DNA from: a virus
Virus record (IMG/VR): IMGVR_UViG_3300035698_012088
Location: 1 to 64,000 of that record
DNA: 64,000 nt
Strand: one strand, 5' to 3'
This document shows, piece by piece, positions 2,145 through 28,272 of the stretch (the stretch's first letter is position 1; every line of letters starts with the position of its first letter). Made by a program: the position numbers and the translations under genes. The notes beneath the pieces are model-generated. The model had not been told where the DNA came from, ran no database searches, and worked only from the letters and a program-made list of their open reading frames with translations.

Positions 2145-2763
2145 ACATTTTCAAATAGACGATGAAGAAGAGGCTGATAAAGGTGAATATAAGTTTGGTG
2201 CCATCAGAAACGGAATGCAGGGAACATTGATCCCTTTAACTGGTGACAGAGGCGGGCCTGAAGGAGAACAGTCTGTATATGGTAGAATAGTAATAGGTAA
2301 AGTTTATTCAGGAGAAGACTGGGATGTAGTAGAAGATCTATTACCGGACTGCCTCTTAGAAGACGCAGATATAGAGCTATCTGAAGAAGGCACTGCAACT
2401 CTCATAGACTCCCTAGAGGACGCTAAGGCAGTCCAGGATAGGGAAGTACAGGAAAAGGCCCTTGAGCAGCAGCTACAAGCCTTAGAAGAGCAGAAGAAAA
2501 AAGAAGACTGTAGTAAAAAGATCAAGATTACTACAAAGTATGGCACCTATAAAGGTAAATGTGTAGATATTGTTAGAGACGGAGAGTACGTCATTTTAGT
2601 ATACAGCGAAGACGCAGCCATATTCACCCCTCCTGTATCTGATGAGAAAATCTCATTATGTTGTGAGGGACACACCTGTGAAGTATATTATAAGGGAGTA
2701 GAAGTATCACTCTCCAGCTTCAACATCTGTTTACAGATTATGGAACTAGTTAAGGACAAGTAA
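2053..2763 (+). CDS. Hypothetical protein
   Basis: 236-aa ORF with a TAATG junction to the next gene. Confidence 0.75.
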   Translation: MASSTRNLRGVFISREEVENPKGTRKHPKNRHFQIDDEEEADKGEYKFGAIRNGMQGTLIPLTGDRGGPEGEQSVYGRIVIGKVYSGEDWDVVEDLLPDCLLEDADIELSEEGTATLIDSLEDAKAVQDREVQEKALEQQLQALEEQKKKEDCSKKIKITTKYGTYKGKCVDIVRDGEYVILVYSEDAAIFTPPVSDEKISLCCEGHTCEVYYKGVEVSLSSFNICLQIMELVKDK

Positions 2764-4661
2764 TGGCATATAACGCTGCATTTACAAATACCCCAGGCAC
2801 TGGGCAGGTAACATCCCCTTTCAAGACATTAACTAGATCCTTATTCCCAAGGACTATGAAAGACATCCTCAGTTGGGGTGAGGAATTATGGTTACATCAT
2901 GGCATTTATTCACAGGCTATTAAGAAAGCTGTGAGATACTTTATGACTGAGTTGGAAATAGAGGGTGATGCAGATCTCTCCTATGATACTAGAAAGAACT
3001 ATAGAGATGTCATTCAAAACAACTATGACATCATGACAGAGCTGTCCACTATAGGAGATGATTATATTGCATTTGGTAATTCTTTTACTTCTCTTTATAT
3101 ACCTTTCATTAGAAATATAGTGTGTCCAGACTGTGGATTCAGATTCCCATTTGAGAAGGGAAGAGAGTTTGTGCAGTGGAAAGAGTTTAAGTTTGTTGGG
3201 ACCTGTCCTAATGCAACATGTAACTTCAAAGGGCAGTTCAAGAGAAAAGATTTGAGAAAACCTGAAGAAGAGTTAAAGCCTACTATTATTAGATGGCCCC
3301 CTCAATACATGAGGATTAAACATCATCCTATCTCAGGTAAGTCAAAATACTACTTAGAAGTAACCAAGTATACAGAGCTTATAGAAGGACTAGAGTCTGG
3401 AGACTCAGTTTTTGTTAACGAGACTCCTTGGGAGATTATTGAAGCTCTCAGAGATGCTAAACACTTTGAATTTGCTGATGATGAGATCTATCACATGAGA
3501 AATCCTATTATTGCCTATACTAATCCAGAGATGAGAGGTTGGGGATTACCTAAGTTTATGTCTGAGTTTGAAACTGCAGTTCTTATTGTACTGTTAGATA
3601 AATACAATGAGTCAATTATAACAGACTATCTCATGCCATTTAGAGTTATTGCTCCACCACAAACAGGTTCAGGGGCAAATGGTAACTCTGCAGACCCCAT
3701 GCTTAATGTATCTTTAGGTAACTTTGTATCTAAAGCTAAGCAGATGCTTAATGCCCATAGAAAGAACCCTACTGGTTGGAACTTCTTCCCTTTCCCTCTA
3801 GAATATCAAATACTAGGTGGAGAGGCTAAAGACTTAACCCCAGTAGATTTAATGGAGCATTTTGAGAGCAGACTGTTGAACTCTATGGGCATCCCTCAAG
3901 AGTTTTATACAGGAACCGTAACTGACTCAGCAGGACCTATTATTGGTTTTAAGATGTTTGAGAGAACCTGGCAGCACTTTACCAAAGAGTTGGATAGATG
4001 GTTGGACTGGTTCATCAATAAGCAGGGTACACTAATGCAGTGGGAGAAGGTTACAGCTACTTTAGTTCCTGTATCCATCTATGAAGATCCAGAGATTAGA
4101 CAGTTAAAGTTAGACTTAGCTGCTTCTAAACAGATATCTAGAACTACGGCCTTTAGAAGTCTTGGTATTGATGTTGAATATGAAGACAAGAGAATTGAAG
4201 AAGAAGAGGATGAGTATAACAAGAGAATGGAAGAGAAGCAAATAAAAGACGCTGAGAAACAGAATGTTCTCGGTGCTACCTATGCTCCATCAGCAGCTGA
4301 AGAAATGCTTCAACAGCAAGAACAAGCTGCAGCAGCCCAACAAGGTGGAGCAGCCCCAGCACCAGCACCAGGAGGAGCAGGAGCAGGAGCAGGACCTCCC
4401 TCTTTGGGTGGGTCAGTGGACCAAGGAGCAGGATCAGGTGGCAGCTTAGATGAGATAATGAATCAAGCTGATCAAATAGCCCAGCAACTATTGACTATGG
4501 AGCCTTCTCAGAGGAAGAGTGAATTGATCAACCTTAAGAAGACCAATGAAGCTCTCCATGCACAGGTTAAGGCTAGATTAGAGACATTAGAACAACAAGC
4601 AGCCCAAACAGGAGTCCAGTTAACAAGAGCTGGAGAATTACCCCCTCCAGGACAAGGATAA
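2763..4661 (+). CDS. Probable portal protein with Zn-ribbon insertion
   Basis: Size, position at the start of the head module, and portal-like segments (DYIAFGNSF, EIYHMR, WGLP, ISRTT); CPDC...CPNATC insertion; Q/G/A-rich tail. Confidence 0.65.
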   Translation: MAYNAAFTNTPGTGQVTSPFKTLTRSLFPRTMKDILSWGEELWLHHGIYSQAIKKAVRYFMTELEIEGDADLSYDTRKNYRDVIQNNYDIMTELSTIGDDYIAFGNSFTSLYIPFIRNIVCPDCGFRFPFEKGREFVQWKEFKFVGTCPNATCNFKGQFKRKDLRKPEEELKPTIIRWPPQYMRIKHHPISGKSKYYLEVTKYTELIEGLESGDSVFVNETPWEIIEALRDAKHFEFADDEIYHMRNPIIAYTNPEMRGWGLPKFMSEFETAVLIVLLDKYNESIITDYLMPFRVIAPPQTGSGANGNSADPMLNVSLGNFVSKAKQMLNAHRKNPTGWNFFPFPLEYQILGGEAKDLTPVDLMEHFESRLLNSMGIPQEFYTGTVTDSAGPIIGFKMFERTWQHFTKELDRWLDWFINKQGTLMQWEKVTATLVPVSIYEDPEIRQLKLDLAASKQISRTTAFRSLGIDVEYEDKRIEEEEDEYNKRMEEKQIKDAEKQNVLGATYAPSAAEEMLQQQEQAAAAQQGGAAPAPAPGGAGAGAGPPSLGGSVDQGAGSGGSLDEIMNQADQIAQQLLTMEPSQRKSELINLKKTNEALHAQVKARLETLEQQAAQTGVQLTRAGELPPPGQG

Positions 4662-7561: not shown

Positions 7562-10500
7562 ATGTCCCTATTAATGGAAGTCCTAAAAGAGGCAGGGATG
7601 CCAATTAAAGGATCTATACTCTCAGAGGTTTTAACTGCTCCTCAACCACCATCAGAAGAGATTGGTGTGTCTGAAGATCAGCTTTTGGACTTTGATGACT
7701 ATACTTCAGCTAGACTACAGCTCTTTGATAAGACTCAAATTGCTGTTCAAGAAGCATTCCCCTTAGAGAATGATCAGTATAGCTTATCTGTACAGGATGT
7801 AAAATATAGAGATCCTGACAAATACACCTTATCTGATGAGAAGAAGGCTGTTTCAGAGGGACAGACTTTAGGTAGAAGATTAGTAGGTAGATATGTCGTT
7901 ACAGATAAAGTTACGGGCAAAGTAGCTAATACCTCTGGACTCAGAACTCTTATCAATGTACCCTATTTTACACAGAGAGGGACTTTTATTAGAAATGGGA
8001 CTGAGTATGCTATTCCTAAGCAGCTTAGACTTATTCCTAATGTGTATACAAGACACACTGCTGATGGTAAAGTAGAATCCCAATTTAATGTAGCTCCTAG
8101 AACAGGACCCTCCTTTAGAATACAGATGGATCCTGCTACTTCTCTTTTCTATATGAAAGTATCTAATAGAAAGATTCCGCTATATCCTGTGTTAAGGAAG
8201 ATGGGTGTTTCAGATGAAGACCTTAAGAACACTTGGGGAGGGGGAGTCTTCAAAGTAAACCAGGCCCAGAGAGTATCCCCACATGCTATCAACTGGATGA
8301 GAGACTCCATTGAGAGAGGCGAAGCCATGTTGGAGAAGCAAGGAGAGGAGAATACAGAGCCTGATGAACAGGACAGTGCCAAATTAAGGGCTTACTTCAA
8401 TAATATGGGGTTAGACCCAGAGGCTACTACTTTAACTCTAGGAAAGCCTTATTCTAATGTTACACCGGAGACACTATTAGATTCTACTTCTAAGATCCTA
8501 AAGGTATCTAGAGGACAGGCAGAGACAGATGATAGAGATTCTTTAGCTTTCCAGACTGTACATGATGTTTCAGACTTCCTTCCAGAGAAGATACGACATG
8601 ACCAGAATAGAGTTATGAGAAATTACTTATGGAAGCTAACAGGTAAAGGAGGAGACCCTTCTGTTATTCCTTCTGCTGCCTTGGACAAACACTCAGCTCA
8701 TCTATTTAATACTGCTAAAATTGCACAAGCTATTGAGGAGATATCTCCTTTAGATATATACAATCAGAATCACAGAGTTGTGAGACTAGGAGAGGGAGCA
8801 CTACCCTCTATAGAATCTGCGCCAAGAGAGGCCAGAAATGTGCAACCAAGTTATCTTAACTTCATAGATCCAATCAGGTCACCTGAATCGCTTAGAATTG
8901 GACTGGATCTATTCTTCTCTAGACAGGTGAGAAAGGGCCCAAAGAATCTATTGTACTCTAAGTTTCTTGATCCTAAATCAGGAAAATTACAGTGGGTGAG
9001 TTCTAGGAAAGCAGCTAATGCTATTATAGGATTTCCCGATGCGTTAAAGACTAAAGACAGATATGTTCCAGCTATGTATAAATCTAAAGGTATCTACTAC
9101 GTTCCTAGGGAAAAGGTAGATATGTTTGTACATTCCGGGGATGACCTCTTAAGTGTTGGGGGTACAACAGTACCTTTAGCTTCTGGTATTAAGGGAATGA
9201 GATTCTTGATGGGATCTAAGTATCCCTCTCAATCTCTTCCTCTAGTAAATAGAGAAGCGCCCAATGTACAGAGTCTTGCTAAAAATGGACAGCCTCTATA
9301 CGAATACCTGAGTAAATTCATGGGAGTTAAGAGAGCAGAGGCAGCAGGTGTTGTGACTAAAGTGGGTAAAGAGTCTATGACCATAAAATATGACAACGGT
9401 GAGACTAAAAATGTAGATCTCTACAATACTTTCCCGTTTAGTAGAAAGACCTTCATGCATAATTATCCTACTGTAAAGCTAGGAGATAGGGTTGAGAAGG
9501 ATGGACTATTAGCTACAAGTAACTTCTCCACAGATACCGGAACTGGAGCCCCAGGCAGAAACCTTAGGGTTGCCTACATGGGATATAGAGGTAAGAACTT
9601 TGAAGACGCTACTGTAATCTCAGAAGAAGCCGCTAAGAAGTTAACCTCAGAGCAGATGTATGTAGAGAAAAAGGAAGAGCAAGAGGGACTTAGGTTTAGT
9701 AAGAATACTTTTAGAAATCTATTCCCAACTAAGTTTAAAAAAGACCAATTAGAGAACATTGGGGATAATGGAATAGTAAAACCGGGAACTGTATTAAACT
9801 ACGGTGATCCTATGATCTTAGCCTCCAAAGAGAGAATACCATCCTTGTCTACTCTAGGCAGAAGGGTAAGTACAGATGAATCAAAGGTATGGGAACATTA
9901 TTCTCCAGGAGTTGTGACCAGTGTATCTAAGACTAAGAAGGGCCATTCTGTCTTTGTTAGAAGTAACTCTCCTATGCAAGTTGGAGATAAACTAGCCTTA
10001 CCTTGGGGAGCCAAAGGGATTATCTCAGAGATAGTAAAACAAGAAGATATGCCCAGGGATGCTCAAGGAAAAGCCTTAGAGGTTCTATTAAGTCCTCTAG
10101 GCATTATCTCTAGAACAAATAGTGCTCAATTGGTTGCTGCAGCATTAGGTAAAGTAGCTGCTAAAACAGGTAAGCCTTATGTCCTCCCAGGATTCATGAA
10201 TGAGAACATGGTTGACTTTGCTATGAAAGAATTAGCAGACAATGGTTTAACTGATACAGAAGAATTATATGACCCTTTACTAAAGAAGAGTATACCTAAG
10301 GTTTTTGTAGGTAACACTTATGTGTATAAGCTACAACAAATAGCAGAGTCTAAAGGTAAAGCTAGATCAACAGGATCTTACTCACAAGATGAAGACCCAA
10401 GTAGAGGTGGAAAGTCAGGCTCTAAGCATGTAGGATCTCTGGATCTACAGGCACTACTATCTCATGGAGCTACAGAGGTTATCAAAGACCTTAAGCTCAT

Positions 10501-13500
10501 CAAGGGACAAAAGAATGATGACTTCTGGAGACAGGTTAAATTAGGGAAGACTCCAGTCTCTCCCAAGTCTACCTTTGTATATGACAAGTTTAAAGCACTA
10601 CTTAGGTCTGGAGGAATTAACCTACAAGAGACCTCAACAGCAGATTCTATATATGGTATGACTAATACCCAGATGGTTAAACTTAGTGGGAATAGACAGA
10701 TTAAGACAGGTCAAACTTTCTCAGCTAAGCATCTTAAACCTATCCCAGGTGGTTTATTTGATCCACAGGCAACAGGTTCCTTAGCTGGAGGAGATAGATT
10801 TTCTTATATCCAATTACCCGATCCTTTGCCTAACCCTATGATGGAGAATGCTTTAAGGGTTATCTTAAGTAAGACTCAGAAAGAGTTTGATGAAGTCCTA
10901 GAAGGTGGTTTATCAGTGGACGGTAAAACTGGTGGACAAGCTATGAAGGCCCTATTAGACAAGGTATCCTTACCTCAACTAAAAGCTCAAGCAGAAAATG
11001 AAATCAGATTTGGGTCAGCATCTAGAAAAGACGCTGCTGTTAAGAGATTTGGATTTCTCACTGCTATGGAGAAACATGGGGTGAAGCCTTCTGACTTTAT
11101 GATGGATAGAGTTCTTGTGCTACCTCCTAAATATAGACCAGTAACTAGACAAGGTGGGCTAACCATGTCTAATGATATGAATTATATGTATAAGGCTTTA
11201 ACTGAAGCTATAGAAGACTATAATGATTCTGAAGGATTACCTGAACCAGTAAGAAAAGAAGCTAGGTCCAATTTGGTAAACATCCATAGAGCCACTATTG
11301 GAATGATAGACCCAGCTCATCCTAAACTAGTACAAAAGAACATAGGTGGGATTTTAAAACAACTATTTGGTAAAGGCTCCCCAAAAGCTTCCTTTGTACA
11401 AAGAAAGGTTATGGAAACCAATATGGATATATCAGGTTTAGCTGTAGTATCTCCTAATCCTAATCTAAAGTTAAATGAAGTAGGGCTCCCTATAGAAAAA
11501 GCTTGGGAGTTATATGAACCTTGGATTATAAGACATATGGTTAGAAACAATACTCCAGCTACAGCAGCTGCTAAAGCAGTCAAGAATAAAGACAGGTCTG
11601 CTCTAGCCGCACTTCAAGAGGTAGTGAAGCAAAGACCTGTGATAGTAAACAGGGCTCCAACACTACATAAATATAGTATGATGGCCTTTAAACCTAAACT
11701 AGTTAAAGGGGAAACGCTACAAGTATCTCCTGCTATTGTAGGACCTTTTACTATGGACTTTGATGGGGATTCAATAAGTGGTTGCGTTGCAGTGAGTTAT
11801 GACTTTTTTATAGATAATATAGAAAAAACAGTTGAAAAAAGCAAAGGGGATAGTATAGTAGTTAATACGAAAAAGGAGGCAAATATGCCAATTTCAAAAA
11901 CTGCTAAGCTGTCAACAAATGTGAGTATTATTCCTATAGAGAATATGCCTAGAATAGAAGCGTCTAAAATAGAGAAATCAGATAATGTTTCAGAATGGGA
12001 TGTTCCATTAGGGGTGAATGTATGTGCTTTAGATAGAGAAACTAGAGAACTCAAACATTATGCTGTGACTAAGTTTTCAGAACACAGAAACCTAAAGATG
12101 TTTGATGTAACCTTAGGTAAATGGTACTCCAAGGTAATAACTGTATCTGAGGACCACTCCCTGGTTGGATATGTAGATGGAGTTTTAGAACTACTTAAGC
12201 CAGAAGAGGCCCTACATAAAATGGTACCTGTGTCTAAAGCTCTACAGCACTATTCCTCTGAAGACACTATATATAACATGTCTAATGGAGAAGTAGATAT
12301 CTATTTAAATAAAGAGTCGGGTATTGTTTTAGGTGCTCTTATAGGAGATGGTTGGGTGGATGTAGGGAATACCTGCTATTTAACTTCTGCTTATCCTGAA
12401 TTCATAGACTACATAGAAGGATGTTTAATTCAAGGAGCTATTCCTTTACACAATAAAGATAAAGTACTCTCCTCCCACTATTATGATAGAAAAAATATTG
12501 AAGGTGTGGTAAAACCTGTTAATAAGACTACTTTTTCTTTAACAGCTAAAGCAAAAGAACTAATAGGTCAAAAAATAGGAAAAGGGTTTGATAAGAAAGT
12601 TATTCCACAAGAGTGTTTAAGAGCACAAAGATCTCATCTTATAGGTTTACTCATAGGCCTTATGTCTACAGATGGTTCTATTTTCTGTAAGAAGGGATTA
12701 AAGAGAAATAAAGAATTTTGGAACTGCGGAGCTAGTTATTGTACTCTTTCTACTAATTTAAGAGATTCTTTTGTACATCTTTGTAAACTATTGGGTATTA
12801 GAACCACAGTGTCTATGTTTATAACTAAACTTAAAGGTAATACCGGGTATACAATTACTCTATGTAAGCCTGACTTTGTTAAGTTCTGTAGAGAGAATGA
12901 AGCTTTCCATATGCCTATTGCACATAAACAAGACGCACTAGAGTTATTCTTAAGTAAGGTAGATATGGAATCAAACACAGCCCTAGCTGTAGATAAAGTG
13001 CCGTATCCTAAAAATCTGCACTCTGTGTTTTTACAGTTAAATAAACAAGGTACTCCTGTGCTAAGCCCTTCTGGACTAAGTAAAGTCAATAAAGATGGAT
13101 TTATTTCTAGAATAAAGGCTTTAGAGTTTTCTAAAAAGCATTTACAGGATCTACCAGAAGATACTGTACATAGTTTTAAAGAATGGAGAACTTTAGTAAA
13201 AGATACAGAGGTTAATTGGGAGAGAGTAGAGAATGTATCAAAAAGAGAAGGACTAGAGACAGCTTATGATATAACAGTTCCAGGCCCTTTTACCTTTGCT
13301 ACTTCTGATGGAATAATTGTCCAAGATACTGCCTCTTATTCAGTTCCAGTATCTAAAGCAGCTGTTAAAGAGGCAATGGAAAAGATGTTACCGGAGAAGA
13401 ACTTATTATCAGTAAGAAATGACCTGCCTCACTATGTTCCGAGCCAAGAGTACATTCAGGGGCTATATTACAGTACTAAAGAGCCTACTAACAAAAAACC

Positions 13501-13591
13501 AGTTATATTCTTAACCAGAGCAGATGCTATGGCTGCATATAAGTCCGGTGAGATTAGAGTTGATGACCCTATTATTATAAAGGGCGAATAG
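7562..13591 (+). CDS. rpoBC: DNA-directed RNA polymerase: beta subunit fused to the N-terminal part of beta', intein-containing
   Basis: Beta motifs GTFIRNGTE, DPIRSPE, KNFEDATVISE, GDKL...KGIIS, SPLGIISR, ARSTGSYS; then beta' motifs GLFDP, VLPPKYRP, VGLP, NRAPTLH, DFDGD, PSQE. Confidence 0.93.
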   Translation: MSLLMEVLKEAGMPIKGSILSEVLTAPQPPSEEIGVSEDQLLDFDDYTSARLQLFDKTQIAVQEAFPLENDQYSLSVQDVKYRDPDKYTLSDEKKAVSEGQTLGRRLVGRYVVTDKVTGKVANTSGLRTLINVPYFTQRGTFIRNGTEYAIPKQLRLIPNVYTRHTADGKVESQFNVAPRTGPSFRIQMDPATSLFYMKVSNRKIPLYPVLRKMGVSDEDLKNTWGGGVFKVNQAQRVSPHAINWMRDSIERGEAMLEKQGEENTEPDEQDSAKLRAYFNNMGLDPEATTLTLGKPYSNVTPETLLDSTSKILKVSRGQAETDDRDSLAFQTVHDVSDFLPEKIRHDQNRVMRNYLWKLTGKGGDPSVIPSAALDKHSAHLFNTAKIAQAIEEISPLDIYNQNHRVVRLGEGALPSIESAPREARNVQPSYLNFIDPIRSPESLRIGLDLFFSRQVRKGPKNLLYSKFLDPKSGKLQWVSSRKAANAIIGFPDALKTKDRYVPAMYKSKGIYYVPREKVDMFVHSGDDLLSVGGTTVPLASGIKGMRFLMGSKYPSQSLPLVNREAPNVQSLAKNGQPLYEYLSKFMGVKRAEAAGVVTKVGKESMTIKYDNGETKNVDLYNTFPFSRKTFMHNYPTVKLGDRVEKDGLLATSNFSTDTGTGAPGRNLRVAYMGYRGKNFEDATVISEEAAKKLTSEQMYVEKKEEQEGLRFSKNTFRNLFPTKFKKDQLENIGDNGIVKPGTVLNYGDPMILASKERIPSLSTLGRRVSTDESKVWEHYSPGVVTSVSKTKKGHSVFVRSNSPMQVGDKLALPWGAKGIISEIVKQEDMPRDAQGKALEVLLSPLGIISRTNSAQLVAAALGKVAAKTGKPYVLPGFMNENMVDFAMKELADNGLTDTEELYDPLLKKSIPKVFVGNTYVYKLQQIAESKGKARSTGSYSQDEDPSRGGKSGSKHVGSLDLQALLSHGATEVIKDLKLIKGQKNDDFWRQVKLGKTPVSPKSTFVYDKFKALLRSGGINLQETSTADSIYGMTNTQMVKLSGNRQIKTGQTFSAKHLKPIPGGLFDPQATGSLAGGDRFSYIQLPDPLPNPMMENALRVILSKTQKEFDEVLEGGLSVDGKTGGQAMKALLDKVSLPQLKAQAENEIRFGSASRKDAAVKRFGFLTAMEKHGVKPSDFMMDRVLVLPPKYRPVTRQGGLTMSNDMNYMYKALTEAIEDYNDSEGLPEPVRKEARSNLVNIHRATIGMIDPAHPKLVQKNIGGILKQLFGKGSPKASFVQRKVMETNMDISGLAVVSPNPNLKLNEVGLPIEKAWELYEPWIIRHMVRNNTPATAAAKAVKNKDRSALAALQEVVKQRPVIVNRAPTLHKYSMMAFKPKLVKGETLQVSPAIVGPFTMDFDGDSISGCVAVSYDFFIDNIEKTVEKSKGDSIVVNTKKEANMPISKTAKLSTNVSIIPIENMPRIEASKIEKSDNVSEWDVPLGVNVCALDRETRELKHYAVTKFSEHRNLKMFDVTLGKWYSKVITVSEDHSLVGYVDGVLELLKPEEALHKMVPVSKALQHYSSEDTIYNMSNGEVDIYLNKESGIVLGALIGDGWVDVGNTCYLTSAYPEFIDYIEGCLIQGAIPLHNKDKVLSSHYYDRKNIEGVVKPVNKTTFSLTAKAKELIGQKIGKGFDKKVIPQECLRAQRSHLIGLLIGLMSTDGSIFCKKGLKRNKEFWNCGASYCTLSTNLRDSFVHLCKLLGIRTTVSMFITKLKGNTGYTITLCKPDFVKFCRENEAFHMPIAHKQDALELFLSKVDMESNTALAVDKVPYPKNLHSVFLQLNKQGTPVLSPSGLSKVNKDGFISRIKALEFSKKHLQDLPEDTVHSFKEWRTLVKDTEVNWERVENVSKREGLETAYDITVPGPFTFATSDGIIVQDTASYSVPVSKAAVKEAMEKMLPEKNLLSVRNDLPHYVPSQEYIQGLYYSTKEPTNKKPVIFLTRADAMAAYKSGEIRVDDPIIIKGE
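11771..13327 (+). mobile_element. LAGLIDADG intein (519 aa) immediately after catalytic DFDGD; Ser1, C-terminal Gln-Asp, Thr+1
   Basis: Removal restores DFDGD|TASYSVPVS (cf. DFDGDQMAVHVPLS). Block B VSEDHSL, endonuclease motifs LGALIGDG and IGLMSTDG, block F AYDITV. Confidence 0.88.
11832..11887 (+). promoter_or_regulatory. Putative internal promoter, RBS and in-frame ATG inside the intein
   Basis: TTGAAA(11832)-16-TATAGT(11854); AAGGAGG at 11873-11879; in-frame ATG 11885. Confidence 0.6.
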
Positions 13592-13613
13592 ATTAAACTA
13601 TTAGGAGTAGAAT

Positions 13614-14279
13614 ATGTTAGATAAAGAGAGTTTACTAAGTAGTATCAGAAGTGCCATGGAGAAAGAGGCATATGCTCCTCCAGCTCCTATGCCTATGGAC
13701 CCAGCAATGGGAGCAGCTCCCCCAATGGATCCTGCAATGATGGGAGCACCCCCTATGGATCCTGCAATGATGGGAGCACCCCCTATGGATCCTATGGCAG
13801 GAGGAATGCCTCCAATGGACCCAATGGCTGGTGGAATGCCTCCAATGGACCCAATGATGGATCCAGCTATGGGTGGAATGCCTCCTATGGACCCTGCTGC
13901 AGTAATGGATCCAGCTATGGGTGGAATGCCCCCAGTTGATCCCGCAGTTGCAGACCCTCTAACTCCTGGTTCAGAAGCTGAAGCAGCCTCTACAGAGGCC
14001 ATTGAAAAGCTTATTGATACAGTGGAAAAGTTGGATAAAAAGGTTGGCTCATTAGAAGAAGGTGTTGTTCAGGCTTTAGATGCTCAAGGTATTATGCCCC
14101 CAGAACAAGCTCTAAATGATCCTCAAGAAGTACCTGAAGAAGAAGTTACTCCTGAGGAAGTTGGCTTTTCCGATGAAGTTCAGAAGTTAGCATCAAACCA
14201 AGCCCTTTGGGAAAAAGATCTAGCCTCTAGGAGAGAACCTCTACTTAATACCTTAAGAGATATTAGAAAGATGCTCTAA
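13614..14279 (+). CDS. Pro/Met-rich repeat protein, putative internal head protein
   Basis: AGGAG RBS; PPMDP repeats; MEKEA and QKLAS motifs. Confidence 0.8.
   Translation: MLDKESLLSSIRSAMEKEAYAPPAPMPMDPAMGAAPPMDPAMMGAPPMDPAMMGAPPMDPMAGGMPPMDPMAGGMPPMDPMMDPAMGGMPPMDPAAVMDPAMGGMPPVDPAVADPLTPGSEAEAASTEAIEKLIDTVEKLDKKVGSLEEGVVQALDAQGIMPPEQALNDPQEVPEEEVTPEEVGFSDEVQKLASNQALWEKDLASRREPLLNTLRDIRKML
13690..13945 (+). repeat. Degenerate 24-36 nt tandem repeats encoding (G)GxPPMDP(A)M
   Basis: Repeated cc(t/a)atgga(t/c)cc units. Confidence 0.8.
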
Positions 14280-14289
14280 GGAGGGTATA

Positions 14290-14805
14290 ATGCCAGTAGA
14301 TTTTAATCAATTAAAAGATAGAGCCGGATCCTTCTTAGGAGATGTTGGAGAAAAGATTAAGAAGAATCCTGAATATGTCACCACTCCTGGTGGAGCAGCT
14401 ATTGCTCATTTACTAGGTGCTGGAGCAGGTGGAGTGGCTTTAGGGGCTGCAGGTGGATATGGAGCAGGTAAAGTACTTGGCTCTGCCATCAACCAAGAAC
14501 CTATTGGCCCCGCCCCAGATAAAGTTTTGAGTGATATGGGGGGCCGAAGTGATCTCAACCCTCTTATAGACAGCACTATTGATACTGGTGCTGGAATTAT
14601 GGGGGACGCTGCCAAAGGCGTAGCTAATCAAACACTACAACATCCTATTATTGCTACAATCTTAGCCATCCTTCTTTTTAAGAGTAAAGGTGGCAGAGCA
14701 GTAGGAAGAGGTTTACGCGGAGCAGCAGGTGGAGCCATGGATCTCGGTAAGAACATTCTTAAAAGAAAACCTAACCTACATGTTGCGCCACCCAAAGTAC
14801 CATAA
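14290..14805 (+). CDS. Gly-zipper hydrophobic protein
   Basis: GAGAGGVALGAAGGYGAG and IIATILAILLF segments. Confidence 0.75.
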   Translation: MPVDFNQLKDRAGSFLGDVGEKIKKNPEYVTTPGGAAIAHLLGAGAGGVALGAAGGYGAGKVLGSAINQEPIGPAPDKVLSDMGGRSDLNPLIDSTIDTGAGIMGDAAKGVANQTLQHPIIATILAILLFKSKGGRAVGRGLRGAAGGAMDLGKNILKRKPNLHVAPPKVP

Positions 14806-14808
14806 TAC

Positions 14809-17736
14809 ATGCCAAAAGTTCAGACAATAGGTCAAGTCTTAATAAAGAATGCCTTACCTGAAAATCTAAAGGAGTTTGAAGGCACCTTAGATAAGAAGGG
14901 TACCCAAAGGTTACTAGAGAGACTTGCTAAAGAAAACCCAGAAGAATATGTGGATACCTTGAAGAAGTTATCTGACATAGCTGCTGTGGTGTCTACTGAA
15001 TATGGAGGGGCAGCTTCTGTTGATTTAGCTTCACTTAGAACTCCCCCTTCTGTGGAAAGATATAAAGAGACAGTGAATGCAAAGGTTAGGTCTATATCCC
15101 AAAGCTCTAGTATCCCCATGGAAAAGAAGAGTGAGATGATTGTAACCTATCTTAGAAAGGTTAACCAAGAAGCACAGAAAAGAGTTTTAAATGCAGGAGC
15201 TGAGGTAGACAATATCTTCATCAATGCTATTAACCATGGATTTAGAGGTTCCCCCACTCAGGCTAAACAGCTTCTCTTTGGAGATGTCCTTAATGCTGAC
15301 CATAGAGGTAGAGCAATTCCTATTCCTGGGCTTAGTAGCTATGCTGGAGGAGTATCTCCCTTAGAATACTGGGCAGGGGCCTATGGTTCTAGAAAGGGAT
15401 ATGCTGATGTACAGTTTGCCACAGCAGATACTGGATACTTCGGTAAACAGATGGCCCTTATGGGTAATAGAGCTAGGATTACAGGAGAAGACTGCGGAGC
15501 AGATGATGTAGGTTTAGTAAGAGATGGGGATGATCCTGAGATTATAGGCACTATCCTCTCTAGAGATGTAGGGCCCTTTAAGAAAGGACATGAGCTAGAG
15601 AAACAAGATCTATCTGTTCTTAGAGATAAGAATGTAGTAACAAGATCCTTAGTAACTTGTCAACAAGATGAAGGTATTTGTCAGAAGTGTGCGGGCAAAA
15701 GAGAGAATAATGAGTATCCTCCTATGGGAGCCTTTGTAGGAATTACTGCAGCCAGAACAGTATCAGAACCAATGACCCAGGAGCTAGGGTTATGTCTTTG
15801 CGCCGCAACGACTTATGTAACAATGGCAGACCACAGCACCAAGCTTTTAAAGGACATCAAGTTAGGTGATTATGTACTTGGAGCTGATAAAAAAGGAAAC
15901 ACTTTTCCAACAAAAGTGCTTAATATTTTCAATCAGGGAGAGAAGGAAGTTTCAGAGATTGTATTTAAAGGGGCTTCTAGAGAAGAGAGGTCTATGGTAG
16001 CTACTTTAGATCATAAAATATTATCTAGAACTAGAAGTAACAGTAAAACAAAACTAGATATAAACCCCTGCGGATACAAAAATTCTAGATTTGGGGCGGT
16101 ACTCCCCTCTAAGTTTAAGGATAGTGGATTTACAGATAATAGCTATGATTTACTATTGGGGCTACTATTAGGAGATGGGGGATACTCTAAAGGAACACAT
16201 CAGGTAGCTTTTTCCTGCGACGACTCTACTCTATTAGAAGATATCAAAGACTATATGGGCTCTCTAGGACTGTACCTAAAGAAAAACAGCATCTGTAAAT
16301 ATATGGTAAACAGTTTAGAAGGCAAGGATAAAAAAGGCTGGAATAAACCTAATCCTTGTAAACAGTATTTACAGAAAACGGGACACTGGGGACAGATGTC
16401 TTATGAGAAATACATCCACCCCGAAGTATTAAATTCTTGGTCTAATGTTTCAGTAGCTAGACTTTTAAGTGGGCTATTTATAACTGATGGCAGTATTGGT
16501 TTCTCTAAACAAAGTGACTACCCTACTATAGAGTTCTGCAGCACTTCTGAAAGATTAGTGGAACAGGTTAAGCACTTATTGGAAAAGAGATTCGGTATCT
16601 ACAGTGGAGTGGTCTATGAGCAGGATAACACTAGAGGGTATGGAAAAAGAAATTTATATAGAGTAATTATAAGCAGAAAAGAATCCGTGTCTAAATTTAA
16701 AAATAATATTCCATTATTCGGCAAAAAGAAGAAACTATTGGATACTTGGAATAATTCTAACCTACAGGACGAGGCATATGTTATAAAAAGGGTATCTATG
16801 GAGAGTTTAGGAAAAAGACATACCATGGATATAGAAGTAGAACATCAGGATCACTTATTTGTTCTATCTAATGGTCTAATTGTATCAAATTCAGCTAAAC
16901 ATACTGGGGGTAATATTGGGAAAGATATTAAAGAGATAGAGGGGTTTGCAGAGATTAACCAATTCCTCCAAGTTCCTGAAAGATTTATTGGAGCTGCTAT
17001 ACTTGCCCCAGCAGATGGTAAAGTAACTAAAAAAGAGAAGGCCCCTCAGGGAGGGCAATATCTATATATTGGACAAGACAAAGTATATATTCCTCTGAGT
17101 AGGAAGTTGGATGTAGAAGTTGGAGATATGGTTGAAGCTGGGGACGCTATGACAGATGGAACACCTAACCCAGCAGAGATTGCCAGACATAAGGGATTAG
17201 GAGAGGGAAGGAAATACTTTGTACATAGATTCAGGAAGATGTTAGAAGATAATGGTATTCCACAGATGGTTAGAAATATAGAACCACTAGCTAGGAACTT
17301 CTTTGATAGAGTTAAAATAACAGATCCAGATGGAGTGGGAGGGTATGAGATAGGGGAAAGAATACCTTATTCTATGCTACAGAGAGAATATACTCCTAGG
17401 GTAGACTCTGAGACTATGTCTTTAAATAGAAGTGTGAACAAGTATCTAGAGAAACCAGTATTGCATTACACAATAGGCACAAAGATTACTCCTAAGATGG
17501 TTAAGTCCTTAAAAGAGATTGGATATGATAAGATATTAGTTAATGCTGAAGCTCCTGGTTTTGTTCCTGATGTAGTAAGATTGGCTGACAATACTTCTAC
17601 TGATCCAGATTGGAAAACAAGGTTGGCCAGTTTTGGACTAAAGAGATCCTTATTAGATTCAGTAACTCATGGCTCAACAAGTAAGCATGATTCTGCCTCA
17701 TTTGTCCCTAGTTTAATGAATCCGAGTACCCTATAA
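14809..17736 (+). CDS. rpoC: RNA polymerase beta' C-terminal part, intein-containing
   Basis: Bridge helix GSRKGYADVQFATADTGY; Zn site RSLVTC...GICQKC; trigger loop AARTVSEPMTQ...SAKHTGG. Confidence 0.92.
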   Translation: MPKVQTIGQVLIKNALPENLKEFEGTLDKKGTQRLLERLAKENPEEYVDTLKKLSDIAAVVSTEYGGAASVDLASLRTPPSVERYKETVNAKVRSISQSSSIPMEKKSEMIVTYLRKVNQEAQKRVLNAGAEVDNIFINAINHGFRGSPTQAKQLLFGDVLNADHRGRAIPIPGLSSYAGGVSPLEYWAGAYGSRKGYADVQFATADTGYFGKQMALMGNRARITGEDCGADDVGLVRDGDDPEIIGTILSRDVGPFKKGHELEKQDLSVLRDKNVVTRSLVTCQQDEGICQKCAGKRENNEYPPMGAFVGITAARTVSEPMTQELGLCLCAATTYVTMADHSTKLLKDIKLGDYVLGADKKGNTFPTKVLNIFNQGEKEVSEIVFKGASREERSMVATLDHKILSRTRSNSKTKLDINPCGYKNSRFGAVLPSKFKDSGFTDNSYDLLLGLLLGDGGYSKGTHQVAFSCDDSTLLEDIKDYMGSLGLYLKKNSICKYMVNSLEGKDKKGWNKPNPCKQYLQKTGHWGQMSYEKYIHPEVLNSWSNVSVARLLSGLFITDGSIGFSKQSDYPTIEFCSTSERLVEQVKHLLEKRFGIYSGVVYEQDNTRGYGKRNLYRVIISRKESVSKFKNNIPLFGKKKKLLDTWNNSNLQDEAYVIKRVSMESLGKRHTMDIEVEHQDHLFVLSNGLIVSNSAKHTGGNIGKDIKEIEGFAEINQFLQVPERFIGAAILAPADGKVTKKEKAPQGGQYLYIGQDKVYIPLSRKLDVEVGDMVEAGDAMTDGTPNPAEIARHKGLGEGRKYFVHRFRKMLEDNGIPQMVRNIEPLARNFFDRVKITDPDGVGGYEIGERIPYSMLQREYTPRVDSETMSLNRSVNKYLEKPVLHYTIGTKITPKMVKSLKEIGYDKILVNAEAPGFVPDVVRLADNTSTDPDWKTRLASFGLKRSLLDSVTHGSTSKHDSASFVPSLMNPSTL
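15793..16890 (+). mobile_element. LAGLIDADG intein (366 aa) in the trigger loop
   Basis: CLCAATT start, ATLDHK block B, LGLLLGDG and SGLFITDG, ends GLIVSN|S. Confidence 0.9.
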
Positions 17737-18465
17737 ATGCCAATAGATAAAAGACAAGATGATGATGGGCAGAGAAGGAAGAAAATGGCTCTTTGGGCTG
17801 TTGCTGGAATGGGGGCTGCAGCAGCTGGTGGCATTGGCTATATGATGTACAAGAACAAGGATAAGTTCCCTAAAGCCCAAGAAAACTTTAGTGCACCCTT
17901 TGGTATATCCTCAAAACAACAAAAATCTATTTTAGGTGGAAAAGATTTAAGTAAGAAGTTTAGTCCTGAGCAATGGGGATCCCTACAGGCTTGGAAAGGA
18001 CTCCACATCGCAGCATCTAAATTAAAATCTGGAGGTCATGATGTTCCTTTCCAGTCAGGCCTACACAGGAAGAAGGTTGCTTATAAAGACTTCTCCCCTA
18101 AGATATTAGAACAACTAGGATTTCAGAAGTCCATGATTGCTGTTCCAGAAAGGGGGCAAACTCAATGGACAACCTATAGACACCCCAAGACATTCCATCA
18201 CTTACACAAGCATAAGAAGGATTGGTATATGCATAGAGATAAATTCTTAGCACTTCAATTAGCTATGCAGAGGATTGTTGGAAGAGATATTGGAGCAGGA
18301 CTGGGGGCTGTAGGGTCAGGAATCCACCATCTTGCTACAGAAGGTATTCCTGGTGGAACGAGGTATATTAAGAATAAGTTGTCCGGTGCTCCCAATTTTG
18401 AGGATATAAGCAATGACCTTAAAGGGGACTATCCTTTGATCTTGAAGATAAAGAACCTATTATGA
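17737..18465 (+). CDS. Hypothetical protein with N-terminal hydrophobic Gly-rich segment
   Basis: ALWAVAGMGAAAAGGIGY segment; His-rich core. Confidence 0.7.
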   Translation: MPIDKRQDDDGQRRKKMALWAVAGMGAAAAGGIGYMMYKNKDKFPKAQENFSAPFGISSKQQKSILGGKDLSKKFSPEQWGSLQAWKGLHIAASKLKSGGHDVPFQSGLHRKKVAYKDFSPKILEQLGFQKSMIAVPERGQTQWTTYRHPKTFHHLHKHKKDWYMHRDKFLALQLAMQRIVGRDIGAGLGAVGSGIHHLATEGIPGGTRYIKNKLSGAPNFEDISNDLKGDYPLILKIKNLL

Positions 18466-18926
18466 ACAAAAGAGCTTATATAGAAGGATATTTGAGTAAG
18501 GAAGCTTCAGGGGATAACATGTTTACTGAAGATGCTGACATGACAAAACTGTTTGATGACTTCTCAAAGAACCCTAGAATCAAAATGTCTAAATTTATCC
18601 ACCCTATTTCTACTATACTTGGAGCAGGGCTGGGGACTTATGTAGGACATAGATGGAATAAACATGATCCCAGGAATGAAGATACTAAGAAAATGATTCT
18701 AGGAGGTACCGCTGGAGGTATGGCTGGATCATTTATAGGGTCCGTTGCCAAAGATAAAATGAGATGGCCCGAAGTAATAAACTTGATTAAGAATGTCAAG
18801 AACGTGCAGAAAAAGAGAAAACCTCTTAGAGCTATACTTGCTAGTCTGTTATCCGATGTAGCAGATTTAAAAGCAAGACCCGCTACTAAATTAACACCAG
18901 ATCCAGGTGATCTGTTGAATATATAG
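18462..18926 (+). CDS. Gly-zipper putative internal virion protein
   Basis: Leader AYIEGYLSKEAS; two GxxxG segments. Confidence 0.72.
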   Translation: MNKRAYIEGYLSKEASGDNMFTEDADMTKLFDDFSKNPRIKMSKFIHPISTILGAGLGTYVGHRWNKHDPRNEDTKKMILGGTAGGMAGSFIGSVAKDKMRWPEVINLIKNVKNVQKKRKPLRAILASLLSDVADLKARPATKLTPDPGDLLNI

Positions 18927-18971: not shown

Positions 18972-21128
18972 ATGCCTGAGAATTCCTTTGAACAAAAATT
19001 TGGGCAGCTTGTGGACAACCAGTTGAAGGAAAAAGTTCCTGGGCTGTTAGAATATCGTGTAGGCTTTCAAGTAATAGACAAGAATGAAGAAGAAACAAGA
19101 GCAGTAGGAGTCTCTGCTTTTATCGTTAATAATGTATGGGCATATATTCCTGTATTCTTCCTAGAGGGAGAGTTAAAAGGAATGGATCTCTTTTACCTTA
19201 AACAGAGCGATATCTTTGTTCCTTCTAGAGACAACTGGATTACTACCTTCAAAGAAAAGGGTTCCCAGACTTTAGGTAAATCTGTAGATATTGGTGAAGA
19301 CGATGAAGACGGAGAAAATATGGAGCAAGCATATGCTCCTGAATCTGTCTCTATTGAAGAAGGTCCCGATTCAAACATAGAGAAAGAATCTATGTCTGAT
19401 AGATTTGGGGCTAATGCTATAATCTCTATAGAAGATATGCAGAAGATGGCAGCAAGAGCTATGCAAGATGTAGACTTTGACTTTGCCTCTCAATTGACCA
19501 AATTGGGAGCAGATGCTCAGATTACTTTTGCGAACACTCTTATGCACAATGCAGAATTTGCCAATGCTGCCTTTTCAGTACATGATCCTTCAGAGTTACA
19601 AAAAATTGCTTCTGTAGTTAAAGAAGCTGCCATGTTACAAGAAGATGATGATATGGACGAGGTCTCAGTAACCTTTATTAGTAAGGTTGATTCAGCTGCG
19701 GCAAAGAGCCTAAAAGACTCAGAAAAGAAAGCTCTAGTCCAACAGGGAGTTTTTGTTAAGGATGAGAGGACTAACTTCTCAAAGGTCTTCCATACTCAAG
19801 TAGACTCAGATGTTGTAGAAAACCCCACTACTAGTGGAATCTATGATGTGTTTATGAGAGACGGGTCCTTTAGAACAATGCTAGTTCTTTTCATTGATAG
19901 TGGAGATGGTTCCTTCTGTTCCTATAAAAACAACACACCTGCCAAGAAGGTGGGCCTTGTTGATCTAAAGACACCCACCAAGTATTACAAGAGAGACAGT
20001 AACTCTGTATTCACTAGACCTCCAAGAGATCTAAAATCAGAAGTTGGTAAAAGTGTCAAAGCTGGAGTTAAAGCATCCAGAAGAGGAATTAGAGATAAGA
20101 AAGAATGGGATAGAGTTCTTTTATCTCAGGAAATGAAGTATTGTGTAGAAGCTAGAATAGATGACAAGTTTACTGATCCTGAAGGAAAGGTACAAGTTTA
20201 CTTAGCCAATGATAGTGTTTATACTCCCTATGATTCTCCTGCAATTATGGATGCCCCTACAAGTCTATATCTAGAGTTCACTGATGAAGAAGCAGGTAAA
20301 CTGTGTGTCTTCAGTGACAAGATTTATGTACCAAGTAATGCCAGAATGTTCTTCCCCTATGAGTGGAAAGAAGACAAGGACTTAGCTTTAGGTACTATAG
20401 AGACTGTATATAGAGTTATGTCTAAAGAAGCCTCTTTTGAACCAATGAGAATTTATGCTTCTGGGGGAACAGCTCAAATTGTTATTGGAGATTGTGATAC
20501 AGGCCTAGTAGAAAAAGAAGCTGCCCTAAAAACACTAGTCTTAGGTGCAGGTATCTATGCTGGCCAAGCACAACAACTTCTAAAGGAAGCTTCTAGAAAC
20601 AGCCACGGCGTTCTAGATATGTTCATTAAGTTAGCAGCTCCTTATGATGTAGATAAGTATCAAGGTTCACAGTTGAAGCCATTCCAAGGAGGTCCAGCAG
20701 CCAAAGAAGAAGACGCTGTATTGGAAGAAGAATCTACTACAGAAGGGAAGAAATTACTTCCTGCAGATGCTGTAGCTAAAGCAACTAAAGCCTCCAAGGC
20801 AGGAATCAAAGAAGTCTTTGACCTCTCTGTTTTACAAAGTCTAGTAGAAGTAGCTGATCTCTCCGAACTTAGAAAAGACTATATCTCTGATATGATTCAA
20901 GGTATGGATAAAGTTGGTAGAATGTTATTTCTATATTACTGGCACAATGATGAGTTCGAAGATAGATATGGAAAAGAGGACATGATACAGTTGGAAGAGA
21001 CATTGAAACAGGTATTTGTTAGTACTGGAGACTTAGTTCTATTCTTGAAAGAGAAGACAGCTTATAATCCAGATACAGCAGAGTCCCTCTTTGGTGATCT
21101 TTCAGAGGACGTCGCCGAGTCGGAATAA
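18972..21128 (+). CDS. Large head-module protein of unknown function (putative core/internal protein)
   Basis: AGGAGA RBS; about nine K-x-A/G/S motifs. Confidence 0.8.
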   Translation: MPENSFEQKFGQLVDNQLKEKVPGLLEYRVGFQVIDKNEEETRAVGVSAFIVNNVWAYIPVFFLEGELKGMDLFYLKQSDIFVPSRDNWITTFKEKGSQTLGKSVDIGEDDEDGENMEQAYAPESVSIEEGPDSNIEKESMSDRFGANAIISIEDMQKMAARAMQDVDFDFASQLTKLGADAQITFANTLMHNAEFANAAFSVHDPSELQKIASVVKEAAMLQEDDDMDEVSVTFISKVDSAAAKSLKDSEKKALVQQGVFVKDERTNFSKVFHTQVDSDVVENPTTSGIYDVFMRDGSFRTMLVLFIDSGDGSFCSYKNNTPAKKVGLVDLKTPTKYYKRDSNSVFTRPPRDLKSEVGKSVKAGVKASRRGIRDKKEWDRVLLSQEMKYCVEARIDDKFTDPEGKVQVYLANDSVYTPYDSPAIMDAPTSLYLEFTDEEAGKLCVFSDKIYVPSNARMFFPYEWKEDKDLALGTIETVYRVMSKEASFEPMRIYASGGTAQIVIGDCDTGLVEKEAALKTLVLGAGIYAGQAQQLLKEASRNSHGVLDMFIKLAAPYDVDKYQGSQLKPFQGGPAAKEEDAVLEEESTTEGKKLLPADAVAKATKASKAGIKEVFDLSVLQSLVEVADLSELRKDYISDMIQGMDKVGRMLFLYYWHNDEFEDRYGKEDMIQLEETLKQVFVSTGDLVLFLKEKTAYNPDTAESLFGDLSEDVAESE

Positions 21129-27321: not shown

Positions 27322-28272
27322 ATGATAGAACCTAAAGTTAGGGCAATGAATGAAGCCGTCATAAACGGTCTCACATCAGACGATCCTTATATCCAGAAAG
27401 AAGCACAGAATGGAGTCAATGACTTCCTCCGCATTAGAGCCCGTGAAGACGGTTTCTGCAGAAGAATTCAGCCTCCTGTCCCTGTGACTCCTGCTGATCT
27501 AGACCGTCAAGTTGATACTGTTAAGCCAGTTATCGTTAAGGACATGGAGCCAAACACTCCTAGTGCTTATACGGTTCCCTTTGGTGCAGTGCCAATGAAC
27601 CATTATATGGACGCACCTAGATACCGTGTCATGTTTGACCGTATTCTCAGTCATAGATTTACTGCAGATGTGGCCAACCTTTTGACATATGATCTGGATA
27701 TCAGACAAGTCTTTAACGACCTCATGCTTAAAGACATTCTCGCAGAAGAAGACAGAAAGTATATCGCAGTTGTGGATACTGTCTGTGGAACACTTAATGC
27801 AGCTGTCCGTAGTGAAGTTGCATCCAAAGGCTATGTTACTGTTGGTGGCTTGGACAGACAAGCTCTTGCTGAAGCAATGAAGGGTATTCCTTCAACTAAC
27901 CGTCACCTCAGCCCTGCTGTTGCACTTATCAATAACATTACCATCTGGGACGTTGTTGCATTAGTCAGAGAGCAAGTTGGTGGAGACCTATCTGAAGAAC
28001 TCTTCGTTAATGGCTTCGCTGAGAGACAGATCATGGGTCTTAAGTGGTTTATCACCATCAAGACTGATCTAGTCGCAACCAATGACCTCTATATGTTTGC
28101 AGCTCCTAAGTTCCTCGGGGACTTCTACGTCCTTGAAGACGTGACTGTAAGCACAAAACATGAGAACTATATGTTTGAAATGTTTGCTTATGAGATGATT
28201 GGCGGAACCGTCAAGAACACTGCTGCTGCTGCCAAAGCCGCATTCAGTGGTTCACTAGTTGCTTGGGTGTAA
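27322..28272 (+). CDS. Major capsid protein (probable HK97 fold)
   Basis: Position, strong RBS, codon-usage shift, downstream terminator; REDGFCRRI and DILAEEDRK segments. Confidence 0.8.
   Translation: MIEPKVRAMNEAVINGLTSDDPYIQKEAQNGVNDFLRIRAREDGFCRRIQPPVPVTPADLDRQVDTVKPVIVKDMEPNTPSAYTVPFGAVPMNHYMDAPRYRVMFDRILSHRFTADVANLLTYDLDIRQVFNDLMLKDILAEEDRKYIAVVDTVCGTLNAAVRSEVASKGYVTVGGLDRQALAEAMKGIPSTNRHLSPAVALINNITIWDVVALVREQVGGDLSEELFVNGFAERQIMGLKWFITIKTDLVATNDLYMFAAPKFLGDFYVLEDVTVSTKHENYMFEMFAYEMIGGTVKNTAAAAKAAFSGSLVAWV

Follow-up and report, generated by a model that had tools for sequence, protein, structure and literature searches.

The first 64,000 nucleotides of an uncultured phage contig (IMG/VR virus record IMGVR_UViG_3300035698_012088; hereafter the window) encode, between positions 7562 and 17736, a multisubunit RNA polymerase (RNAP) of bacterial type in which the whole of beta is fused to the N-terminal part of beta' (beta'N), while the C-terminal part of beta' (beta'C) is the product of a second gene downstream. 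The two genes are almost certainly the two-chain polymerase core of a phage family that includes Salmonella phage Arash, and their layout is shared by hundreds of phages yet undescribed in the papers that we found. The explanation that we regard as best, and as likely, is a core of two chains without alpha or omega, made from proteins whose inteins splice out, used with a phage sigma factor and probably delivered in the capsid. The window opens a contig of 159,412 bases, whose completeness was estimated at 82% by CheckV, and a megablast search of the polymerase region against the phages of GenBank gave no match.

Two genes encode a core with both catalytic barrels

The two polymerase genes and their parts (lengths in amino acids, aa) are as follows.

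7562..13591, + strand: chain 1 gene, beta and beta'N with intein 1; 2009 aa as read, 1490 aa if spliced
7562..10636, + strand: beta-like part, aa 1-1025 of chain 1; Pfam Rpb2_6, beta chains of the Protein Data Bank (PDB) at E of about 1e-55, alignment with E. coli beta
10637..10648, + strand: fusion joint of about 4 residues (TADS), between the last beta-alignable and the first beta'-alignable residue
10649..11770, + strand: beta' N-terminal part up to DFDGD, aa 1030-1403; Pfam Rpb1_2, PDB beta' chains at E of about 1e-40
11771..13327, + strand: intein 1, 519 aa, aa 1404-1922 of chain 1; absent from Arash gp206 and from Vibrio phage D69
13328..13591, + strand: end of chain 1 (87 residues, beta' as far as about E. 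coli 565) with the stop codon; Pfam Rpb1_3 positions 1-57
14809..17736, + strand: chain 2 gene, beta'C; 975 aa as read, 609 aa if spliced; Pfam Rpb1_5
15793..16890, + strand: intein 2, 366 aa, aa 329-694 of chain 2; absent from Arash gp216 and from D69

The motifs of chain 1 are colinear with beta followed by beta': those of beta come first, then those of beta' as far as DFDGD, then the intein and 87 further residues of beta'. Pfam matched Rpb2_6 at aa 594-942 (E 4e-46), Rpb1_2 at aa 1350-1406 (E 3e-20) and Rpb1_3 (positions 1-57) at aa 1947-2006, together with an intein-splicing family. The original prediction, which was made by reading the sequence without database searches, had placed RpoB and then RpoC motifs in one spliced chain of about 1,490 aa, and these matches and the alignments agree with it. 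The beta part contains the fork-loop/Rif-pocket region (aa 395-414), NFEDA (aa 679-683), GDKLALPWGAKG (aa 808-819) and, near its C-terminal end, GINLQETS (aa 1018-1025); its barrel has both active-site lysines (GDK...KG) and the ED loop, as expected of a two-barrel core, and the lineage-specific insertions of E. coli are missing from it. The beta'N part contains the clamp helices and NRAPTLHK (aa 1363-1370). The first beta' zinc cluster (E. coli C70-C88) is deleted in chain 1, Arash and D69, while alignment showed that it is kept in phages RP13, RHph_TM30 and Carin-5. The three aspartates of DFDGD and the two lysines of GDK...KG were invariant in an alignment of 43 sequences.

Alignment with E. 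coli beta showed the changes D516E, H526Q and S531V in the rifampicin pocket of chain 1. Since these positions are known for resistance, the phage polymerase is predicted from its sequence to be probably insensitive to rifampicin. ATG 7598 is an alternative start of chain 1, at which the homologues and the database gene call (1997 aa) begin, and may be the true start rather than ATG 7562; both are preceded by an AGAGG ribosome-binding site. The N-terminal motif MP-x-K-[GA]-S of chain 1 is common to Arash and D69.

In chain 2 the bridge helix spans aa 192-214 and the second zinc site has its cysteines at 229 and 284-294; the trigger loop is also in this chain. Chain 2 matched PDB beta' chains at an E value of about 1e-31, and its Rpb1_5 match was interrupted by a LAGLIDADG_3/Hint module. 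SI3 is absent from the beta' part, and of the two beta' zinc sites the second is kept and the first lost, as in Arash and D69. Read through both chains, the beta' barrel, NRAPTLH, DFDGD, the bridge helix and the trigger loop are colinear with those of cellular beta'. The bridge helix and trigger loop had been assigned beforehand to a second gene, of about 609 aa and two open reading frames (ORFs) downstream, and this is where they were found.

Chain 1 ends at the equivalent of about residue 565 of E. coli beta', and the start of chain 2 (MPKVQTIGQ) aligns with E. coli KDTTVGR, QTIGQ being the equivalent of TTVGR. The stop codon at 13589-13591 ends chain 1 and beta'C is encoded 1.2 kb downstream, so that the fusion is not a full beta::beta' fusion. 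The first 144 residues of chain 2 were too weak in the PDB search, and the cyanobacterial break was mapped with the C-terminal part of Arash gp206, of which the last 226 residues align with cyanobacterial gamma only as far as residue 552-556 of 624-626, the end of gp206 itself falling at about gamma residue 556-559. The original prediction had set the break before QTIGQ, close to the cyanobacterial rpoC1/rpoC2 split without coinciding with it; our mapping confirmed this and showed that the two breaks are 65-70 residues apart.

The fused frame defines a large phage family

The results of our tblastn searches showed that the fused frame is also present in Arash (OQ632216; PMC10585845) and in Vibrio phages D69, D148 and D181 (OZ195729 and others). 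The two proteins of Arash (gp206, 1525 aa, and gp216, 606 aa) and those of D69 (1527 and 609 aa) are colinear with the window chains and free of inteins; as in these phages, beta and beta'N of the window form one frame to about E. coli beta' 565 and a separate beta'C begins at the TTVGR equivalent. When 5.8 billion clustered proteins were searched, 193 clusters matched at E <= 1e-10; among the best 120, which were listed, nearly all have Rpb2_6 and Rpb1_2 together and end at the last residue of chain 1. Relatives are encoded by at least 583 IMG/VR contigs. Gene-neighbourhood counts were taken from 80 kept IMG/VR loci, and a beta'C gene was found 0.5-6 kb downstream on the same strand in 62 of them. 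Five clusters of about 2000 aa (P0118-P0122), a sister group, have beta, beta'N and beta'C in one chain, with the junction exactly where chain 1 of the window stops and chain 2 begins. The polymerase is thus no stand-alone oddity, since a large phage family, with the cultured Arash and D69 among its members, has the same fusion and the same break.

Scanning of 185,579 species genomes (GTDB) returned a single family member, on a 3.8-kb contig of a metagenome-assembled genome, the other 79 kept loci being cellular rpoBC, and gave no clue to the host. In the literature, including reviews to 2026, we found no description of a phage beta::beta'N fusion with a separate beta'C; the Arash paper (PMC10585845) and the deposited annotation call the proteins simply beta and beta' and leave the fusion unmentioned. 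Several GenBank records labelled as phages (OR844998, OR846602, CAKLQH020000005 and others) hold ordinary bacterial rpoB-rpoC operons, which are probably host DNA in the assemblies.

A quick IQ-TREE phylogeny was made from about 500 columns of the beta'N region, with 18 cellular bacteria and no outgroup. A branch with 100% SH-aLRT support separated all 33 family sequences from all 18 cellular bacteria, and RP13, TM30 and Carin-5 fell outside both groups on long branches. Compared in this way with cellular and phage RNAPs, as the original prediction had advised, the family is separate from the sampled bacteria; the tree speaks for its separateness and not for its age. The window lies in a derived clade, while the single-chain forms, Arash and D69 lie in a poorly resolved basal group. 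The single-chain forms P0118-P0122 occupy two places in that group, so that fusion or splitting may have occurred more than once. In the PDB, both chains matched bacterial beta and beta' of cellular origin best; the top 60 matches were all cellular enzymes, with no chain of phiKZ or AR9 among them.

These data bear on whether the fusion could be an artefact of assembly or frameshifting, which the original prediction had itself named as a risk, or a recent capture of a host rpoB-rpoC operon. We found no point in support of either, and both are extremely improbable. An artefact is contradicted by the presence of the same fused frame in more than 100 independent clusters and in isolate genomes and by the 100% peptide coverage of gp206 in mass spectrometry of Arash virions (PMC10585845), while a recent capture is contradicted by an identity to cellular rpoBC of only 24-27% and by the position of the family apart from all sampled bacteria.

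A single polymerase set accompanied by a sigma-70-family gene

No Pfam match to alpha (PF01193, PF01000 and PF03118) or to omega (PF01192) was found in this genome. In D69 and in four relatives rated as complete by CheckV (205-225 kb), where alpha alone was searched, PF01193 (the dimerisation domain of alpha) was likewise without a match. By Pfam, the core of this phage thus differs from the usual two-barrel core in having neither an alpha dimer nor omega among its subunits. Exactly one beta-type barrel (Rpb2_6) per genome was found in this phage, in the four complete relatives and in D69, which indicates a single polymerase set, where phiKZ has two. The gene for a candidate partner lies outside the window.

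67417-68139 of the contig (3.4 kb after the window ends): sigma-70-family gene; profile, tblastn and structure matches

The statement in the original prediction that no alpha, omega or sigma is recognisable in the window holds for the window and does not hold for the contig, which has this sigma gene. The protein gave weak matches, in the correct order, to sigma regions 2 and 4, and matched Arash gp10 by tblastn (E 4e-9), which itself passes the Pfam cut-off for Sigma70_r3; of 38 homologues, 20 matched Sigma70_r3 and 11 matched r4. Its AlphaFold2 model (pLDDT 86.6) had sigma B, sigma S and sigma A as best PDB matches by Foldseek, with a probability of 1.00 over about 250 columns. Regions 2, 3 and 4 in order and a sigma fold, the marks of the sigma-70 family, were thus found in this protein or its homologues. 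When this protein was modelled together with residues 1060-1391 of beta'N, the predicted complex passed with a score of 0.67, against 0.40 for the best of three controls; the pass mark is one that 58 of 80 solved complexes and two of 110 mismatched pairs reached. The runs agreed in at least 63% of contacts, and partner pLDDT was at least 74. The predicted interface lies on the beta' clamp helices; solved complexes of sigma with clamp helices exist, so that the pass may reflect likeness alone, and the model indicates such likeness rather than proving binding.

With a sigma-70-type factor encoded outside the window and conserved in the family, the holoenzyme would probably have at least three chains, and we lean towards the view that the phage polymerase uses the phage sigma. 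Many large phages redirect the host core with a sigma, and the sigma-like protein could do so here too, the phage polymerase then using another, unrecognised initiation factor. This would agree with reviews which state that phages with their own multisubunit polymerase are without sigma and that large phages encoding sigma are without a polymerase (PMC7824862, PMC7598289), and the modelled interface is the generic one of sigma with clamp helices. However, one copy of sigma was found in each of the five family genomes tested, so that with Arash gp10 it co-occurs with the fused polymerase in six of six; it was also detected together with the polymerase in Arash virion preparations, and the clamp helices of beta' are retained. 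Redirection of the host core is therefore the unlikely course, and use of the phage sigma by the phage polymerase is preferred.

Inteins interrupt both chains at active-site positions

The limits of the inteins were set by alignment with the intein-free homologues of Arash and D69, and the chains without them are 1490 and 609 aa long, exactly the lengths given in the original prediction. Intein 1 follows DFDGD directly, has two LAGLIDADG motifs, starts with a serine (SISGC...) and ends with ...IIVQD before a threonine. Intein 2 is inside the trigger loop, between ...SEPMTQELGL and SAKHTGG...; it has the canonical ends of an intein, from Cys1 to ...LIVSN before a serine, and matched Pfam LAGLIDADG_3 (E 1.5e-18) and, weakly, Hint families.

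In the relatives, the fused polymerase gene is a hot-spot for inteins, with about nine insert positions (in P1s numbering about 443, 530-552, 630, 812, 852, 952-971, 1064-1076, 1277 and 1403) and up to six inteins per protein; P0104 (3257 aa) and P0006 (3082 aa) are large examples. The junctions of inteins at the DFDGD site are odd in P0012, P0019, P0024, P0036, P0037, P0038, P0084, P0087 and P0104. One group has D-x-D-G-N followed by C at the N-terminal junction and [Y/W]-D followed by T or S at the C-terminal junction, as if the third catalytic aspartate and the terminal asparagine of the intein had been exchanged; canonical splicing of these inteins would yield DFDGN, a damaged magnesium site. 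A second group begins with Gln, Leu or Glu and is thus without an N-terminal nucleophile.

The polymerase genes lie among the head genes

The polymerase genes are flanked by two genes for head proteins.

2763..4661, + strand: portal protein gene; tblastn to Arash gp204 (annotated as portal) at E 5e-63, weak PHROG portal match
27322..28272, + strand: major capsid protein gene; tblastn to Arash gp226 (annotated as major capsid protein) at E 1e-25, weak PHROG major head match

The portal, polymerase and capsid genes are on one strand with small gaps and with the polymerase in between, and the same arrangement is found in Arash and D69. The polymerase is therefore embedded in the head operon, as had been predicted, with the portal gene before it and the major capsid gene after it. 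In Arash virion preparations (PMC10585845), gp206 was the most detected protein, with 3516 spectra, while gp216 had 1210 and the sigma gp10 had 467. By analogy with Arash, a relative at about 29% identity, and from the position of the genes, packaging of the enzyme in the virion of this phage is rather probable. Of the distinct two-chain virion RNAP of the original prediction, the two-chain core is thus found as described, and we infer the virion part from the mass spectrometry of Arash and from synteny.

The enzyme could also be real and unpackaged, made after infection for middle or late genes only, with the virion signal of Arash due to carry-over from the lysate. The Arash virion list comprises 116 proteins, clearly non-structural enzymes among them, and a single polymerase set is present here, while phiKZ-type phages have distinct virion and non-virion sets. 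However, the spectrum count of gp206 is the highest of all Arash proteins and exceeds that of the major capsid protein, and in all three of Arash, D69 and this phage the polymerase genes are preceded by the portal gene and followed by the capsid gene on one strand. We consider an unpackaged enzyme improbable and keep packaging as the preferred reading.

Proposed mode of action and points that weigh against it

In the mechanism that we propose, chain 1, a compact whole beta with beta' to about E. coli 565, would bring both catalytic barrels in one polypeptide, and chain 2 would supply the remainder of beta', namely the bridge helix, the second zinc site and the trigger loop. The homing-endonuclease inteins at the active-site positions would have to splice out of the proteins to leave 1490 and 609 aa, and the covalent link between beta and beta' may take over the role of the alpha dimer in assembly. 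Promoters would most likely be recognised through the phage sigma-70-family protein. The enzyme would be packed in the capsid, delivered with the DNA and able to transcribe phage genes independently of the host enzyme.

Several points weigh against this explanation. Very divergent proteins resembling alpha or omega could escape Pfam and, at the estimated completeness of this genome, a further subunit may be encoded outside the contig. The phylogeny was quick, with a small cellular sample and no outgroup. No conserved promoter word was found in 71 upstream regions, in which k-mer enrichment gave only words resembling ribosome-binding sites. The Arash virion preparation also held ribonucleotide reductases, primase and ligases (PMC10585845), a sign of possible carry-over, and for this phage the whole system is known from its genes alone. 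Chain 1 has a proline in GDKxxxR where 37 of 43 relatives have an arginine, and a leucine in beta' D-x-S-G-R where 30 of 43 have an arginine. Finally, the last residue of intein 1 is an aspartate instead of the usual asparagine, its penultimate residue is a glutamine, and its match to Pfam Intein_splicing (E 4e-6) is under the curated cut-off; given these features, its splicing is not assured.

The last of these points would be expected if the polymerase of this phage were decaying or inactive, with intein 1 no longer splicing, so that its 519 aa would stay in place at the magnesium site, and with near-invariant residues replaced. The terminal aspartate and weak score of intein 1 and the Arg-to-Pro change, which is specific to the window, agree with such decay. 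Against it, neither reading frame is broken over its length of 6 kb or 2.9 kb, the catalytic aspartates and lysines are kept, and this is the sole polymerase set in the genome. Moreover, an intein end of ...QD before T or S, or of ...YD before T, recurs in seven separate clusters, and this recurrence of an aspartate-type end argues that intein 1 is a working variant rather than a decayed one. Decay is thus very unlikely, and an active two-chain enzyme is the reading that we retain.

A bolder proposal, which we put forward tentatively and at somewhat less than an even chance, is that of a minimal bacterial-type machine. A two-chain core, which could do without alpha or omega owing to the covalent joining of beta to beta', and a sigma-70-type factor would be packed whole and injected, so as to act independently of the host polymerase from the first minute; its lineage would be separate from the sampled bacterial polymerases rather than a recent capture, and it would be the first phage multisubunit polymerase that is known to act with its own sigma-70-type factor.

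Comparison with other fused or split polymerases

Arash and the Vibrio phages D69, D148 and D181 have the same beta::beta'N fusion and break point as the window, have likewise lost the first beta' zinc site, and encode beta'C downstream; they also resemble the window in the portal gene just upstream, a homologous sigma (gp10 in Arash) and the single polymerase set. They differ from it in that the identity is only about 29% and inteins are missing; nine ORFs separate the two polymerase genes in Arash, against two in the window.

The phiKZ/AR9-type polymerases are two-barrel enzymes without alpha or omega, one set of which is found in virions (reviews PMC7598289 and PMC7824862), and their beta' is described as broken "following the DPBB domain" (PMC7598289). 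We compared them through Ralstonia phage RP13, which we took to be of phiKZ type. Its beta' is split into 517 and 486 aa, with the break in the same loop as in the window and the segment between deleted; RP13 keeps the first beta' zinc site, while the window has lost it. The phiKZ/AR9-type phages have beta in two or three chains, two paralogous sets and no sigma-70-type factor, and the window differs in each respect, with beta in one piece fused to beta'N, one Rpb2_6 per genome and a sigma-70-family gene. The contrast with the more fragmented phiKZ-type RNAPs that was drawn in the original prediction is therefore upheld. Cobetia phage Carin-5 and Rhizobium phage RHph_TM30 have unsplit beta' chains (1083 and 1127 aa, respectively), and in Carin-5 the neighbours of the beta' gene are a gene annotated as sigma and one for a separate beta; the reviews may thus understate the variety of phage polymerases with sigma.

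As in the window, beta' of cyanobacteria and plastids (rpoC1/rpoC2) is cut in two between the catalytic barrel and the bridge helix. However, cyanobacterial gamma (624-626 aa; PMC10895346) extends 65-70 residues beyond the phage break, so that the split is a different one. The cyanobacterial break lies directly ahead of conserved region E. The cyanobacterial enzyme also has a separate beta and both alpha and omega, unlike the window.

In Helicobacter and Wolbachia, beta and beta' form a natural full fusion, head to tail with a short linker, in which beta' is whole and alpha and omega are still used. The window shares the joining of beta to beta', but its beta' is cut again, and only the relatives P0118-P0122 carry everything in one chain.

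Neighbouring genes

Two ORFs lie between the polymerase genes, and a larger one follows them.

13614..14805, + strand: pair of short ORFs (221 aa; 171 aa, Gly-rich) separating the polymerase genes; no family match
18972..21128, + strand: 718-aa protein of no known family; a homologue follows beta'C in 56 of the 80 kept loci

The two small ORFs were considered as conserved extra subunits and rejected, as they have no family match and are not conserved across the 80 related loci. The 718-aa protein gave no lead with Pfam, PHROG or ESM Atlas and may be a further virion or transcription-linked component. Small Gly-rich ORFs (14290-14805 and 18462-18926) flank the beta'C gene, and weak glycine-zipper matches of the second suggest a membrane or inner-capsid protein. 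PHROGs and Pfam gave almost nothing on 20 neighbouring ORFs apart from the weak portal and capsid matches. ORF 138-842 matched a QueE-like radical SAM family (PHROG 2076, E 3e-17) and may serve 7-deazaguanine modification of DNA. A scan for sigma-70-type promoters between 2 and 22 kb returned 46 sites when 45 were expected, and no terminator-like sites were found in the intergenic gaps of the + strand over the same range.

Significance

The family is a large variety of phage multisubunit RNA polymerase for which we found no earlier description. How phage polymerases without alpha assemble is an open question (PMC7598289), and a polymerase with both catalytic barrels in one chain, cut again elsewhere, offers a simple natural system for the study of alpha-less assembly. 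A family with both a sigma and a polymerase contradicts the published rule (PMC7824862). With inteins directly at the magnesium-binding motif and inside the trigger loop, the genes also matter for intein biology and may bear on conditional control of polymerase maturation. Because the family is large, with at least 583 viral contigs, and has cultured members in Arash and D69, these predictions are open to checks at the bench.

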